42,367 nt of DNA from Candidatus Undinarchaeota archaeon (GCA_964401205.1 CAYNXO010000001.1:1-42367); one strand, 5' to 3'; shown: positions 31,193 to 35,784, counted from the first letter of the stretch. The notes: generated from the sequence alone by a model not told the origin. Made by a program: numbers and translations.

Positions 31193-31282
31193 GCGGCGAT
31201 AGTCTAGCCTGGTAGGACAAAAGCTTCCCAAACCTAAAAACGGAAACAGCTTTAGGCCCGAGTTCAAATCTCGGTCGCCGCA
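31193..31282 (+). tRNA. tRNA-Gly(CCC) with 17-nt intron at the canonical 37/38 position
   Basis: Manual cloverleaf: acceptor GCGGCGA/TCGCCGC with discriminator A; D arm GTCT/GGAC; anticodon stem AAAGC/GCTTT; loop TTCCCA|A with anticodon at 31227-31229; intron at about 31231-31247; T arm CCGAG-TTCAAAT-CTCGG. C2-G71 and G3-C70 fit Gly identity. Confidence 0.85.
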
Positions 31283-31357
31283 CTCTTCTTTTAGTAAATA
31301 GACCAAGGGTGCGCAACAATTAAATAAATAAACAAATACGTTTATCTTTGCATTGGC

Positions 31358-31645
31358 ATGAAAAAAGAACCAGTTTCTAATTTGGAGAATTTGTTTTTCA
31401 GGGAAAAGCCAGCCCGGCTTTTAATTCATATTAAAAAAGAACCCCGGCCTTATATAACAATTCTTGCAAAAAGGATTGATGCAACTTATGCACACACAGT
31501 AAAGATTTTGGCTAAGATGCATTCCCACGGCCTTGTTAGTTTCAGCAAGTCAGGCAGGATAAAATATGTTACTCTTACTTCTTCAGGGCTTGAGCTTGCA
31601 GCACATTTTGAAGAATTAATTTTCGAGAAAATGGGGCTGAAATGA
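31358..31645 (+). CDS. Small winged-helix (ArsR/MarR-like) DNA-binding protein
   Basis: 95 aa. YITILAKRIDATYAHTVKILAKMHSHGLVSF..GRIKYVTLT is an HTH plus wing pattern. Confidence 0.6.
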   Translation: MKKEPVSNLENLFFREKPARLLIHIKKEPRPYITILAKRIDATYAHTVKILAKMHSHGLVSFSKSGRIKYVTLTSSGLELAAHFEELIFEKMGLK

Positions 31646-32638: not shown

Positions 32639-33163
32639 ATGGACGAAAAACAGCTAGATGATATTAAGTTAGTAAAATCAAAAATGCCGTTTAGCCGTGG
32701 CATTCCAAGCAAAGAAAGCCTATGGCTGGATGACATAAGGCGCTTGAGAGATGAATGGAAGTACCATCAAAACGTCCGCCTTGAATTAGACCAGGTTCTG
32801 CATATTATATTCCCAAAGAAGTACCAGGAAAGGTACTATGAAACCTCGCTTAAATTCATGAAATCCCTGTTGGAAAAGCAGGTTATGCGCGGAGCTGACT
32901 TGGGCGAATTCCTAAGGCTAAACAGCTACTCAAAAGCCACTTTCTACAACATTATCCTGCCTCGCCTGAAGCGCGTTGGCATGATTACCACTGAAAGAGA
33001 AGCCTTTACAGAGAGCGCTGAGAAGCGCAAATTCTACAGGAAAATAGTGAAGCCCTCAACACAGTTTAGCATCTTTTTCACCCACCTTGCAAGGGAATAT
33101 GAGAGCATAATCGAAACTGCAAAAGCAAGGGCAAGTGCTGTGCAAAAACAGCAAACTTCATAA
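32639..33163 (+). CDS. Hypothetical protein with wHTH-like segment
   Basis: ADLGEFLRLNSYSKATFYNIILPRLKRVGMITTERE segment. TATA-like TTAAATATAT lies about 30 nt upstream. Confidence 0.5.
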   Translation: MDEKQLDDIKLVKSKMPFSRGIPSKESLWLDDIRRLRDEWKYHQNVRLELDQVLHIIFPKKYQERYYETSLKFMKSLLEKQVMRGADLGEFLRLNSYSKATFYNIILPRLKRVGMITTEREAFTESAEKRKFYRKIVKPSTQFSIFFTHLAREYESIIETAKARASAVQKQQTS

Positions 33164-33192
33164 AAACACCATCTCAAGCCGCTTTCTTTCTT

Positions 33193-33208
33193 CTGTGTGG
33201 TATAGCCC
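33193..33208. repeat. 16-nt left arm of duplicated cassette, copy 1
   Basis: CTGTGTGGTATAGCCC is identical to 33705-33720. Confidence 0.7.
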
Positions 33209-33225
33209 TCATCCATTTATAGGAA

Positions 33226-33326
33226 GGCGCATCACAGCACTTGCTTTGTACTTTCAGCGCACTAGCCTCTTTTCCCAGGTTTTTTGCCCCCTAAAATAGC
33301 CACGACTTGCTTAGTGGCAAAAAAGC
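33226..33326 (-). repeat. Family-1 structured element, copy B
   Basis: Roughly 80% identical by eye to the reverse complement of 40340-40439. The stem pairs TTTTTTGCC (33280-33288) with GGCAAAAAA (33316-33324). Confidence 0.75.
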
Positions 33327-33372
33327 TGTGAGACCTAAACTTTCTATACTCGAGTATATATTTCCCAAAAAC
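33327..33372 (-). promoter_or_regulatory. Right arm of duplicated cassette, copy 1: 12-bp palindrome ATACTCGAGTAT plus TATA-like box
   Basis: TGTGAGACCTAAACTTTCTATACTCGAGTATATATTTCCCAAAAAC; the palindrome is at 33346-33357. On the minus strand, AAATATATA lies about 25-30 nt before the 5' end of element B. Confidence 0.5.
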
Positions 33373-33414
33373 TATTTTTCCCAAAACATTTTTGCAGGAT
33401 TTTGTGAGGGGTAG

Positions 33415-33423
33415 TTATATAAA
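33415..33423 (+). promoter_or_regulatory. TATA box for eL41
   Basis: TTATATAAA lies about 20 nt upstream of the ATG at 33440. Confidence 0.5.
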
Positions 33424-33439
33424 TTTAGAAATATATTAA

Positions 33440-33562
33440 ATGCCTGTGAAAACCCGCAAGAAGAAATGGAAGAAGCGCGGAAAAATGCGCTGGAAGTGGG
33501 AAAAGAAGCGCATGCGAAGGCGAATGAAAATCCAGAAGCGCTTGAGAATGAAAGCTATCTAG
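33440..33562 (+). CDS. rpl41e: Ribosomal protein eL41 (L41e), unlisted 40-aa ORF
   Basis: My own translation gives MPVKTRKKKWKKRGKMRWKWEKKRMRRRMKIQKRLRMKAI. The KKRGKMRWKW.KKR.RR core matches my recollection of archaeal L41e. Confidence 0.8.
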   Translation: MPVKTRKKKWKKRGKMRWKWEKKRMRRRMKIQKRLRMKAI

Positions 33563-33595
33563 TCATGCTGCTCGGTTTTCTAGATTTTTCTAAAG

Positions 33596-33657
33596 ATATG
33601 CAAAGCTGTTAAATAAATGATGCTTTGCTATTTTCACTCGCTTACGCTCGTGAAAAA
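33596..33657 (+). repeat. Family-2 structured element, copy E (downstream of eL41)
   Basis: GCAAAGC (33600-33606) pairs with GCTTTGC (33622-33628). TTTTCAC (33631-33637) pairs with GTGAAAA (33650-33656). It lacks the 33-nt insert present in copy D. Confidence 0.7.
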
Positions 33658-33704
33658 TGCCTTAAAATCGATATGCAGAGCCATATCAAGGAGCCGATTT
33701 TAAG

Positions 33705-33720
33705 CTGTGTGGTATAGCCC
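33705..33720. repeat. 16-nt left arm of duplicated cassette, copy 2
   Basis: CTGTGTGGTATAGCCC is identical to 33193-33208. Confidence 0.7.
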
Positions 33721-33762
33721 GACAGCCAACTTTCCCGACTCCCTGCTTTAGAATGAAAAAAT
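33721..33762 (-). repeat. Degenerate / internally deleted family-1 element
   Basis: AGCCAACTTTCCCGA aligns to AGCCTCTTTTCCCAG of copy B. CTGCTTTAGAATGAAAAAATTG aligns to CTTGCTTAGTGGCAAAAAAGCTG. The stem-loop core is missing. Confidence 0.5.
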
Positions 33763-33808
33763 TGTGAGAGATAGAATTTCTATACTTGAGTATATATTTT
33801 CAAAAATC
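33763..33808 (-). promoter_or_regulatory. Right arm of duplicated cassette, copy 2 (ATACTTGAGTAT + TATA-like box)
   Basis: TGTGAGAGATAGAATTTCTATACTTGAGTATATATTTTCAAAAATC aligns along its whole length with 33327-33372. Confidence 0.5.
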
Positions 33809-34331
33809 ACTTTTTCAGGGCATAATAAATTTCCCGGCCCTTTCTTGTCTGCTCCACAACATTGTATTTTACCAATTCACTGAGGCGCATCGCAGCATAC
33901 TGCCTTGAAATTCTCATTTCCTTTGCGATTTCAGCTGCCTGCATTTTTCTCCTGCCGACATAATTTATTATTTTCTTGTCAACATCAAGCATTTCAAGCT
34001 CCCTGTCCACTTCCTCGCGCATTCTCTCAATCTGCGTTTTCTTCTCCTCAAGGTATTTTTTGAAATCTGCAAAATCAGTTTTTGTCGCCTGCTGCTCCAT
34101 TATCTTATGGTGGTCCTCCCTTAAACCCCTGAACCCGCTCAAAAGTGCAGAATGCATCTCCTCAATATCGCGCTGGACATTTGTCATCTGCTTGCTGAAG
34201 CTTATTATTGGATCTTCAGCAATTTTTTCCACAGAAACATATTTCTTTCTCTCCTTCTTCTTAACAATAGAGTGCTGCATAGCGGTTTTGGGAGCTTTCT
34301 TTTTCTTGAAAAAAATGTCTAATAGGCCCAT
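33807..34331 (-). CDS. Coiled-coil protein with C-terminal ArsR-like wHTH and MGLLDIFFKK N-terminus
   Basis: C-terminal IINYVGRRKMQAAEIAKEMRISRQYAAMRLSELVKYNVVEQTRKGREIYYAL. The second Met (34331) is preferred because MGLLDIF parallels the MGILDIF start of 21895..22329. The listed start is 34346. Confidence 0.65.
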   Translation of the reverse strand: MGLLDIFFKKKKAPKTAMQHSIVKKKERKKYVSVEKIAEDPIISFSKQMTNVQRDIEEMHSALLSGFRGLREDHHKIMEQQATKTDFADFKKYLEEKKTQIERMREEVDRELEMLDVDKKIINYVGRRKMQAAEIAKEMRISRQYAAMRLSELVKYNVVEQTRKGREIYYALKK

Positions 34332-34357
34332 ATACGTAAACGACATGTAAATTGATA

Positions 34358-34749: not shown

Positions 34750-35784
34750 TTAATTAGAGCATATCGATTTCGTCAGAAGATTATCGTGAATTTTGATTGT
34801 TTTTCCGAAAAAATGTTCACAGGCCCAGATGTTAGTGTGGCTGTGCTTGGTCAATTCAGAGAATTTTACTGCAAAATCGGTTTGTGAGAGTGCGAGAAAA
34901 GGAATTATCTGATCCAGAGTGCGTTTATCAACAGTCGCTCCTGCCTGAAAATCCTCAATCAGCGATTGCGCTGCATTTTTCCCGACAACCTCTGCACTTA
35001 TTTTTTGTTCGCCAATCTCTGCTGCACCTAAAATCGCGCCATTTTGAGTTGTGAGACATAGCGAGATAGCACTTCCGGCACTTTCAGTGTCAAAATATTC
35101 TGTTTTTATGTCCGCAGAGAAATTCAGCCTGTTAAAAATTTCTCCGCGGCTAGAAACTTTCTGCCGCTCAGCAACTTTTTTGCTTTCAAGATGCCTGCTC
35201 GCAATAGAAATCCCCTTCACAGAAAGAATTTTTCCGCTTTCAACTAAATTCAGCGGAGAAATTTTCTCTGCTGGATGAAAAATCGCAGAAACCTTTGCCC
35301 CGCCCTTTGGGTAAAAACCATGCGACTCAACTTTCAACTCAATTTTATACCCCATCTTCTCCAAAATCTTATAAGTTACATCCTTCACAAAATCGATAGG
35401 CGGCGCCCACTTTCCATATGTTGCTCCGCCTGAAATTTCAACTTTTACTGGATTTTTTGCCTTTAATGAAGCAATTTGAAGCGCCTGAAGAACCAATCCA
35501 ACACTTCCTGCGGTTTCAACACGCACTTTCACCCTTTCAGCAAAAATTTTTTCAGGAAAAAAGGAAATTTCTGTTGAATTCAGCTCAGCTCCCTTTAATT
35601 TTCCACTGCAAAGCTCCGCAACTGCCTTTATCCCCTGCAAATGCTGCTCTTTTAACCCAGGATTCTGCCGGTTTTTCCTAATATTATATACATGAATCGG
35701 CTTTTGGGTAAAAACACTTAACCCTACAGCTGTCCTGAGTATTGCTCCTCCTCCCTCCCCATAACTCCCGTCTATTTCAATCAT
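34750..35784 (-). CDS. rtcA: RNA 3'-terminal phosphate cyclase
   Basis: MIEIDGSYGEGGGAILRTAVGLS and the overall RtcA pattern. 344 aa. Confidence 0.9.
   Translation of the reverse strand: MIEIDGSYGEGGGAILRTAVGLSVFTQKPIHVYNIRKNRQNPGLKEQHLQGIKAVAELCSGKLKGAELNSTEISFFPEKIFAERVKVRVETAGSVGLVLQALQIASLKAKNPVKVEISGGATYGKWAPPIDFVKDVTYKILEKMGYKIELKVESHGFYPKGGAKVSAIFHPAEKISPLNLVESGKILSVKGISIASRHLESKKVAERQKVSSRGEIFNRLNFSADIKTEYFDTESAGSAISLCLTTQNGAILGAAEIGEQKISAEVVGKNAAQSLIEDFQAGATVDKRTLDQIIPFLALSQTDFAVKFSELTKHSHTNIWACEHFFGKTIKIHDNLLTKSICSN

Follow-up and report, generated by a model that had tools for sequence, protein, structure and literature searches.

The intergenic segment 33193-33372 of the window (the whole stretch of 42,367 nucleotides analyzed here, which is contig C1 of a Candidatus Undinarchaeota archaeon genome of 682 kb in 83 contigs, 85% complete) is one of two old paralogous units that lie on either side of an eL41-like gene. 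Each unit, or cassette, consists of two arms around a slot, and the slot of the first holds an intact copy, copy B, of a short repeat that we refer to as family-1. Our preferred explanation, which we hold with moderate confidence, is that the cassette is an old promoter unit with a family-1 element behind its predicted start, and that copy B would form the 5' part of a non-coding RNA. The sequence comparisons establish the anatomy, the conservation and the strand of the unit; transcription of copy B we infer, along the following lines. TBP and TFB would bind the right arm of cassette 1, RNA polymerase would start at about A33329 on the minus strand, and the resulting non-coding RNA of ~170 nt, with copy B as its 5' part, would end at the U5 run 33166-33162. 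This transcript would remain unspliced, and the AUG and the open reading frame (ORF) that it contains would be by-products of the repeat consensus. The locus is a conserved, small, promoter-like unit beside eL41 that is directly testable. The family to which copy B belongs occurs in many states in a few small genomes, as a tRNA intron, a 16S rRNA intron, a tRNA trailer, a gene-start insert with long duplications and, in copy B, a stand-alone copy behind a predicted promoter; these states provide concrete substrates for splicing, circular-RNA and integration assays.

Table 1. Positions of the cassettes, of copy B and of neighboring features in the window
Feature	Position	Strand	Description
Copy B	33226-33328	-	Covariance-model match
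Module 1, hairpin P1	33276-33328	-	CAGCUUUUUUGCC ... GGCAAAAAACCUG
Module 2	33226-33275	-	GGGAAAAG ... CAAGUGCUGUGAUGCGCC
3' extension	33209-33225	-	UUCCUAUAAAUGGAUGA, contains family motif AUAAA(A)UG
Left arm, cassette 1	33193-33208	-	CTGTGTGGTATAGCCC (sense GGGCUAUACCACACAG); part of old cassette
First downstream U5 run	33166-33162	-	Abuts stop codon of gene 32639-33163
60-codon ORF	33034-33216	-	Antisense to conserved gene 32639-33163
Right arm, cassette 1	33327-33372	-	T-run, purine-rich stretch, TATA, AT-rich proximal block, CACA
Predicted start region	33327-33332	-	CA 33330-33329, 26-27 nt from TATA centre; predicted from geometry
Perfect palindrome TATACTCGAGTATA	33345-33358		14 bp; in effect two inverted TATA-like halves
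TATA-like box AAATATATAC	33363->33354	-	GGG/GAAA (BRE-like) upstream
eL41-like gene	33440-33562	+	Between the two cassettes
Hairpin 3' of cassette 2	33661-33704	-	CUUAAAAUCG ... AUAUG..CAUAU ... CGAUUUUAAG, then U-run
Left arm, cassette 2	33705-33720		Second CTGTGTGGTATAGCCC copy
Slot and left arm, cassette 2	33705-33766	-	Internally deleted family-1 copy
Right arm, cassette 2	33763-33800	-	Directly 3' of stop codon of wHTH gene 33807-34346

Two old cassettes around eL41

A repeat search of the window returned two collinear pairs, D3 (61 nt, 80%) and D10 (40 nt, 75%). The right arms of both cassettes follow the pattern TGTGAGA...TTTCTATACT[C/T]GAGTATATATTT, at 33327-33363 and 33763-33799, the second with one change relative to the first (CTTGAG). 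In cassette 1 the pattern resolves into TGTGAGA at 33327-33333 and a 23-mer, TTTCTATACTCGAGTATATATTT, at 33341-33363. This 23-mer occurs at two sites only in a whole-genome pattern search allowing up to three mismatches (<=3), and a fuzzy whole-genome search likewise placed the left arm at two sites only. The arm and box sequences given in a first-pass annotation of this DNA all lie at the coordinates claimed. That annotation had also described a perfect 12-bp palindrome in the right arm; the palindrome is indeed perfect, with a real length of 14 bp. The window holds 23 perfect palindromes of 12 bp (12 expected from shuffles) and eight of 14 bp (three expected), and the palindrome alone is not beyond chance. 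It is perfect in cassette 1 of the window and of one sister-genus genome (G001), carries one mismatch in cassette 2 of the window and in cassette 1 of the other sister-genus genome (G002), and is lost in both sister-genus copies of cassette 2. The case for the cassette as more than a chance arrangement comes from its collinear duplication and from its retention by another genus, not from the palindrome.

In the two genomes of the sister genus, the corresponding gap likewise holds eL41 between two cassettes, and the surrounding gene order is kept across the order: a wHTH protein (95 aa), a 174-aa protein, the gap, a wHTH protein (179 aa, minus strand) and an RNA 3'-phosphate cyclase (minus strand). 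The two winged-helix proteins of the window are encoded at 31358-31645 and 33807-34346. The sister-genus right arms are 85-92% identical to those of the window, which exceeds the 67-84% amino-acid identity of the neighboring proteins. All six right-arm copies from the two genera align without gaps, with an invariant ATATA core, TATACT/TTT block and TGTG.GA (CACA on the minus strand), and the CACA lies 24 nt from the last TATA base in cassette 1, in cassette 2 and in all sister-genus copies. The orientation of eL41 is inverted in the sister genus, exactly between the cassettes. More distant families of the order have eL41 and lack the cassette. On this comparison we take the cassette to be an ancestral unit, older than the first-pass annotation had assumed. 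As a side observation, a search of sequencing runs located the locus in three low-depth groundwater DNA metagenomes only and in no RNA run; the short, shallow DNA contigs contain no variant with an empty cassette 1.

The content of the slot is of family-1 type in every cassette copy, intact in cassette 1 of the window and internally deleted in cassette 2 and in the sister genus. The slot of cassette 2 in the window retains the 25 nt with which a family-1 copy begins, together with its GGGAAA.GGCU linker, such that CACAAUUUUUUCAUUCUAAAGCAGG corresponds to CACAGCUUUUUUGCCACUAAGCAAGU of copy B and GGGAAAGUUGGCUG to GGGAAAAGAGGCUAG. The sister-genus slots share the same skeleton (ATTC..AGGG..GGGAAA.GGC), and in one of them a mini U-run/A-run hairpin, GGTTTTTCGAAAAACC, is retained; a family-1-type element therefore occupied the cassette before the genera split. 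A reading of cassette 2 as recent erosion of a recent duplicate was rejected, because the deleted form is common to the sister genus. Copy B is the only intact slot element, in a genus-specific form that includes module 2, and it fills the slot exactly (TCTCACA|GCTTTTTT...TGGATGA|GGGCTATACC) with no second slot remnant adjoining. It has either been kept intact or been refreshed by conversion from another copy. A blastn search of the two sister-genus genomes found no full family-1 copy. The first-pass annotation had described the cassette as enclosing copy B; copy B does lie between the arms, and the cassette itself is the ancestral unit that is also found in a genus without full family-1 copies.

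The left arm of cassette 1 could derive from the 3' region of the old element itself, or from a target duplication of CTATCTCTCACA that has since decayed. The distal repeat of copy B is degenerate (AAGAAAGC, 33178-33192), and a target duplication around copy B is conceivable from a weak resemblance between CTATCTCTCACA and CTATACCACACA. The hairpin 3' of cassette 2 is kept in cassette 2 of three genomes and in cassette 1 of G001, with a single A->G change that gives a G.U pair; together with its U-run, it is possibly the end of a cassette 2 transcript.

The right arm as a candidate promoter

An 8-bp TATA, AATATATA, runs from 33362 to 33355 (33362->33355) with GGGAAA upstream and CA at 33330-33329, which is the layout of an archaeal BRE/TATA promoter. 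Counting the usual 26-27 nt from the TATA centre at 33358/9 leads to this CA, which lies a single base ahead of the canonical first base of the family. The last base of AAATATATAC lies 25 nt before the C of the CAGC of copy B at 33328 on the minus strand, and an earlier claim that a TATA-like box lies about 25-30 nt upstream of the element agrees with this distance and with the promoter-like architecture of the sequence. The pattern AAATATATA[CA] has only 11 occurrences in 682 kb, two of which are in the cassettes, and in nine of 17 cases TATATAC ends 21-30 nt ahead of the start of a gene or tRNA. Comparable boxes precede the tRNA genes of this genome (TTATATAA-, TTTAAATT- and AAATATATAC-type), ending 27-30 nt before the mature 5' end, and the promoter of tRNA-Ser(GCU), AAAAATATATACAAAG, is nearly identical to the right arm, with its box ending ~30 nt before the tRNA. 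A purine-rich stretch is found on the minus-strand side of the TATA. Given the invariant spacing of TATA, AT-rich block and CACA and the match to tRNA promoters, a minus-strand start near 33329 is plausible. The right arm has the appearance of a genuine archaeal promoter, and the sequence evidence supports this reading, short of proof. Its likeness to archaeal BRE/TATA/initiator promoters lies in the purine-rich stretch, the 8-bp TATA ~26-27 nt from CA and the AT-rich proximal block; it differs from them in being set in a near-palindrome and, mostly, directly after another gene's stop codon. We also note that the right arm is near-symmetric and could fire on the plus strand too.

Copy B had been put forward as the only copy with an evident dedicated promoter. 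This is not so, as cassette 2 has the same promoter before its remnant; most other copies are placed immediately 3' of a tRNA or of a gene in the same orientation, and several orphan copies have TATA-like boxes, but at 10-16 nt. A U6 run 5-10 nt past the predicted start might end transcription early. It does not act as an absolute block, since the same run must be read through inside five tRNA genes.

The GCGCC that closes the element ends at 33226, and the ATG that follows nine bases on (33216-33214) opens the 60-codon ORF, so that the earlier description of an element end 9 nt before an AUG and of the ORF behind it is accurate in both respects. This AUG is part of the family's own ATAAAATG / AUAAAAUG motif: AUAAA(A)UG follows GCGCC by 6-13 nt in at least 15 other copies, tRNA introns included. 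The 60-aa product had no Pfam family match, and the ORF is impossible in the sister genus, which lacks copy B. We judge the ORF to be spurious, a by-product of the repeat consensus. The suggestion that copy B may be something other than an mRNA leader is therefore well taken, as the AUG comes from the repeat consensus and the ORF is without a family match. Caution is warranted more generally, since AUGs and short ORFs 3' of these repeats derive from the repeat consensus.

The predicted transcript of copy B folds no better than shuffled sequences (z = +0.5 for the minus strand, -1.1 for the plus strand), and apart from hairpin P1 thermodynamics give no evidence for a structured transcript. No bulge-helix-bulge could be drawn by hand from the flanks at the borders of copy B, and it is therefore not expected to be spliced. 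The identity of copy B to the family consensus, 86%, ranks in the middle of the copies; a role as the master or source copy was rejected on this ground, as copy B is an average member.

Archaeal RNA polymerase terminates at oligo-T runs, and the right arm lies 3' of a stop codon and a T-run in five of its six contexts, such that termination of the upstream gene may account for some of its conservation. Taken to its full extent, this would make the right arm mainly a module for the end of the upstream minus-strand gene, composed of an oligo-T terminator and a weak hairpin or operator, with copy B a silent selfish insert and the promoter look a product of AT-rich sequence. The start of the arm 10-20 nt past the stop codon, after T4-T5, in cassette 2 of three genomes and in the sister-genus cassette 1 fits this explanation, as do the fold of copy B, no stabler than shuffles, and its average, 86% identity to the consensus. 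So does the placement of the 23-mer 7 nt past a tRNA 3' end in one of the two unrelated metagenome contigs that carry it exactly, which hints at a role beyond that of a private promoter. However, termination in archaea requires the T-run only, and a terminator has no need of a TATA core followed 24 nt on by CACA across a fixed, gap-free spacer. Moreover, the right arm of cassette 1 in the window has no preceding minus-strand gene, as eL41 points away, yet it is the best-preserved copy. We consider the gene-end explanation rather unlikely.

The inversion of eL41 exactly between the cassettes would be accounted for if the palindromic arm were a site of recombination or integration, or one end of a different small mobile element, with the cassettes as scars; the 14-bp palindrome at the core and the exact 23-mer in the two unrelated contigs are also compatible with such a site. 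The cassettes are direct repeats, however, which favor deletion over inversion, they number two copies only in the genome, and the palindrome is lost in cassette 2 of the sister genus. With no recombinase, Cas1, Y1 transposase or reverse transcriptase among the families tried, we regard a recombination site as very unlikely. The remaining alternative, that the arm is a plus-strand upstream promoter or operator of eL41 and the minus-strand match is incidental, draws on the position of the arm in the window, where it precedes eL41 by 70-100 nt on the plus strand, on its near-symmetry, by which the plus-strand TTTCTATAC and a conserved CAAAAA ~25 nt on could be TATA and start, and on a contig (X3) in which the arm directly adjoins the eL41 start. 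Yet eL41 has its own TATA, TTATATAA (33415-33422), which moved along with the gene on inversion in the sister genus, and the arm stayed in the same orientation, which argues against the arm as its promoter. Firing on the plus strand would also give antisense RNA to the neighboring gene in five of six contexts, and the purine-rich BRE-like stretch is on the minus-strand side. This makes an eL41 promoter highly improbable, and leaves the minus-strand promoter unit with copy B behind its predicted start as our preferred reading.

Family-1 and its sense strand

Family-1 comprises about 60 short, non-coding copies that occupy 0.9% of the genome. A blastn search with copy B returned 79 segments covering 6.1 kb (0.9%), and a covariance model (R1) gave 89 matches in the genome. 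Module 1 has 12 outer pairs with GC<->CG and UA<->CG swaps, and its covariation in P1 exceeds that of 500 out of 500 shuffles and of all slid controls. The apical helices contain many U.G wobbles, which would be A.C mismatches on the opposite strand. Module 2 (GGGAAAAG...CAAGUGCGGUGAUGCGCC) is conserved in sequence, in a form specific to this genus, and yielded no convincing covarying fold; an all-vs-all pair scan over 61 copies found wobble-type changes only. A box C/D or K-turn reading of module 2 was rejected: the boxes present, GUGAUGC and a variable CUGA/CUUA, stand in the wrong order (D'-C') and at the wrong spacing, CUGA varies between copies, and both a second box pair and a variable guide are missing. 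Many copies run on into YYCUAUAAAAUGG and a second A-run, CAAAAAGCUG. Copies of the long form have terminal inverted repeats, CAGCTTTTTTGCC mirrored by GGCAAAAAGCTG, and expanded copies such as the tRNA-Cys intron carry UUCG-capped hairpins on the same sense strand. Rfam models at gathering score matched only a tRNA in the window, and a permissive scan of 33100-33900 gave chance-level matches only.

The strand of the family can be fixed independently of copy B from the copies that trail tRNA genes or interrupt them. We called 29 tRNA genes with ARAGORN, introns allowed, and these calls, together with crude ORFs, underlie the tRNA and gene counts given here; the default ARAGORN settings miss the window's tRNA. 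In 14 of the 29 genes, the 5' end of an element directly follows the tRNA, and in five (Gln/Glu, Trp, Cys, His and Gly-GCC) the element is an intron of 111-229 nt at 37/38. The element runs with the direction of the tRNA in all tRNA-trailing (14/14) and all tRNA-intron copies (5/5). It is certainly transcribed in the five tRNA genes in which it sits as an intron, in the orientation that corresponds to the minus strand of copy B. Among 49 copies scored for their neighbors, the upstream gene is co-oriented in 34 and opposed in 12, and downstream there is no bias (25 vs 23). The claim that the minus strand is the sense strand is borne out for the family through the tRNA contexts and the U.G wobbles. 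These sequence features give the minus-strand reading good support for the family as a whole and make it plausible for copy B. For annotation, the family explains the odd look of half of this genome's tRNA genes.

The five tRNA introns begin at the element's first base, exactly CAGC/CGGC, and end with the distal A-run, four bases complementary to tRNA positions 32-35 and two more bases. When the whole pre-tRNAs are folded, the U-run pairs with the distal A-run; the minimum free energy structure of pre-tRNA-Gly(GCC) is the canonical hBHBh', and those of Cys and His come close. Junction pairs could be drawn by hand for Gln (CUCU/GGAG) and His (CUGU/GCAG). The catalytic domain of the splicing endonuclease EndA, PF01974, was not found in the 85%-complete assembly and is encoded by a single gene in 13 of 14 relatives, which makes an assembly gap likely here.

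Related elements across DPANN genomes

Our sequence comparisons indicate that family-1 is a local, expanded branch of a DPANN-wide family. Elements of this family begin with CAGCUUUUU, whose U-run folds onto a nearby A-run, AAAAACCUGGGAAAA, and the long form ends with AAAAAGCUG. A blastn search found no family-1 match in 40 relatives, and model R1 gave weak module-1 matches (CAGCUUUUU..AAAAACCUGGGAAAA) in four genomes of the order. With an exact-pattern scan, both ends were recovered from about 20 MAGs that span several DPANN phyla and carry the labels Woesearchaeota, Iainarchaeota, Micrarchaeota, Altiarchaeales, Nanoarchaeia and Naiadarchaeum; the public genomes that share the common motifs are DPANN MAGs. 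Viral contigs contained neither motif.

Among the contexts in these MAGs are tRNA introns, both at 37/38 and within the T-loop, and three 16S rRNA introns of 152-189 nt that lie after GGATTAGATA and all end in ...AAAAAGCUGCUAAUGA before CCCGAGTAGTCC. In the latter, CUAA pairs with exon UUAG, the ends of the element pair together, and removal of the intron (GGATTAGATA|intron|CCCGAGTAGTCC) restores the universal sequence; no ORF of more than 53 codons was found in these copies. Inside a tRNA or 16S gene, where its ends pair and complete a bulge-helix-bulge (BHB), the element is thus an ordinary archaeal intron. Outside RNA genes, the element is an insert that is not spliced and that runs in the same direction as its host transcription unit. 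Other DPANN insertions are found at the first bases of tRNA or protein genes, with direct duplications of 16 to about 60 nt that sometimes include the promoter and are sometimes tandemly repeated. The clearest duplications in the present genome measure 22 nt, at C38:4220-4319 where an Spt4-like gene begins, and 15 nt, around copy C, and the flanking duplications have lengths of 15, 22, about 25-31, 38, 45 and about 60 nt. Such variation does not fit a transposase that makes a fixed staggered cut. A search of the genome for reverse transcriptase, Cas1 and Y1 transposase families found none of the three. A casposon was rejected, given the lack of Cas1 and duplications of 15-60 nt as against the casposon's 14-15 bp.

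Taken together, these elements are apparently a broad, undescribed family of intron-like mobile elements of DPANN archaea. A more specific proposal would be that the CAGCUUUUU...AAAAACCUGGGAAAA elements are DPANN-wide mobile BHB introns whose conserved ends build the splice motif, that their spread into transcribed DNA takes place at the DNA level, with target duplications of variable length and no element-encoded enzyme, and that promoter-driven copies like copy B act as expressed sources. We consider this full proposal quite unlikely.

The closest known parallel is the "large-scale tRNA intron transposition" described for Thermoproteales (Fujishima et al. 2010, as summarised in PMC4090602 and in bioRxiv 10.64898/2026.10.13.758758), in which related BHB introns likewise occupy different tRNA genes of one genome. 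How archaeal introns move from gene to gene is described as unknown (PMC4090602). The BHB junctions are alike in both cases, and introns of the present family recur in the 16S rRNA of other DPANN genomes as well. In contrast to the Thermoproteales introns, most family-1 copies are not within RNA genes: they follow tRNA 3' ends, sit at the starts of genes or occupy intergenic slots such as the cassette of copy B. The family ends are conserved across phyla (CAGCUUUUU ... AAAAAGCUG) and themselves form the outer helix of the motif. Further differences are the direct duplications of 16-60 nt that flank insertions outside RNA genes, and copy B itself, which has no BHB and is not an intron.

Family-1 also resembles MITEs and small repeats such as Correia/NEMIS of Neisseria in being short and non-coding, in the inverted-repeat ends of its long form, in its location at gene borders and in its capacity to place promoters or terminators beside genes. 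Unlike MITEs, it has no target duplication of fixed length, and a partner transposase was not found among the families tried. It is further set apart from MITEs by a strong orientation bias relative to transcription, a tight link to tRNA genes, covarying RNA-type helices with G.U pairs and, in some members, an intron state.

Dicistronic units of a tRNA and a small RNA are known from plant tRNA-snoRNA genes, and tRNA-linked C/D box sRNAs have been reported for Nanoarchaeum. The arrangement of a small structured RNA directly behind a tRNA in the same orientation is shared by the tRNA-trailing copies of family-1. However, family-1 lacks a variable guide, proper C/D or H/ACA boxes and an Rfam match, and its early U6 run may end the tRNA transcript instead.

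The eL41 gene and its flanking cassettes

Together with its own TATA box, the eL41 gene lies in opposite orientations in the source genus (window 33405-33563) and the sister genus (L045 3092-3251 and, as oriented, L046 2072-2220), and the inversion falls exactly between its two cassettes, which form a direct repeat. The orientation found in the window is also the one seen in more distant relatives. The true start codon of the eL41-like ORF is uncertain, because just 17 nt separate the TATA box from the first ATG downstream of it and the conserved core of 25 residues begins at the ATG at 33485. On the 3' side of eL41, a contig of a related population (about 90% identity) from a low-depth DNA metagenome run (X3) lacks 63 nt at window 33596-33660 and has ATAC in their place, which makes the "family-2" hairpin there look like an insertion/deletion polymorphism.

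A 23-mer forming the core of the promoter-like right arm of the cassettes has exact matches in two otherwise unrelated metagenome contigs (L107 465-487 and L109 376-398); in L107 it sits 7 nt past a tRNA gene's 3' end, and its relative orientation matches that seen in the cassettes.

Expanded, repeated, and possibly reduced forms of the element

The copy of the intron-like element in a tRNA-Cys intron (source genome G000, C3:16136-16389) has two additional hairpins at the junction of modules 1 and 2, each with a UUCG tetraloop as its cap. Inserts of 45-90 nt occur at this same junction in about a dozen copies, and copy A has a long hairpin within module 2. Tandem arrays, located before or antisense to tRNA genes, consist of two to four repeats of a unit comprising a 25-31-nt target fragment and the element, an arrangement that suggests either recurrent insertions at a single site or slippage between duplications.

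The tRNA-Tyr gene of a sister-genus genome, G002 (L057/L090, locus 867-965), has an intron of 24 nt, GTTTGCGCATCAGCAAAAAGCTGAA. It looks like CAGC and AAAAAGCUG, the element's two ends, joined without the interior, and may be a minimal form of the element or one that has collapsed.

tRNA introns, splicing, and a second repeated motif

Default ARAGORN detected zero tRNAs over the window. At least 12 tRNAs with introns are present in G000. For the tRNA-splicing endonuclease, the catalytic domain (PF01974) has no match in the G000 assembly and is found as one copy each in 13 of 14 relatives; its absence is probably an assembly gap. The RtcA gene is syntenic in relatives.

Locations of arrays, genes, and motif copies (C3, C24, C38, and C73 are further contigs of G000)
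Feature	Location	Remarks
Tandem array	L093 3786-4176	Woesearchaeota nzgw44
Tandem array	L058 1395-1550	G008 (another relative)
tRNA-Gly(CCC)	window 31193-31283	17-nt intron; found by Rfam and by ARAGORN with introns allowed
eL41-like ORF	window 33440-33562	40 codons counted from first ATG
RNA 3'-terminal phosphate cyclase (RtcA) gene	window 34750-35784	two genes away from cassettes
AACCAATTTAAC motif	C3:12520-12556	
AACCAATTTAAC motif	C3:16100-16135	
AACCAATTTAAC motif	C24:7330-7362	
AACCAATTTAAC motif	C73:184-215	
AACCAATTTAAC motif	C38:4330-4360	

G000 also contains a second repeated motif, AACCAATTTAAC, with short GC-rich tandem repeats (GCTACGAGCTGCAAGC-like) just before it. Copies sit about 10 nt ahead of an Spt4-like gene and of four tRNA genes; the motif is possibly a further repeat that carries a promoter.
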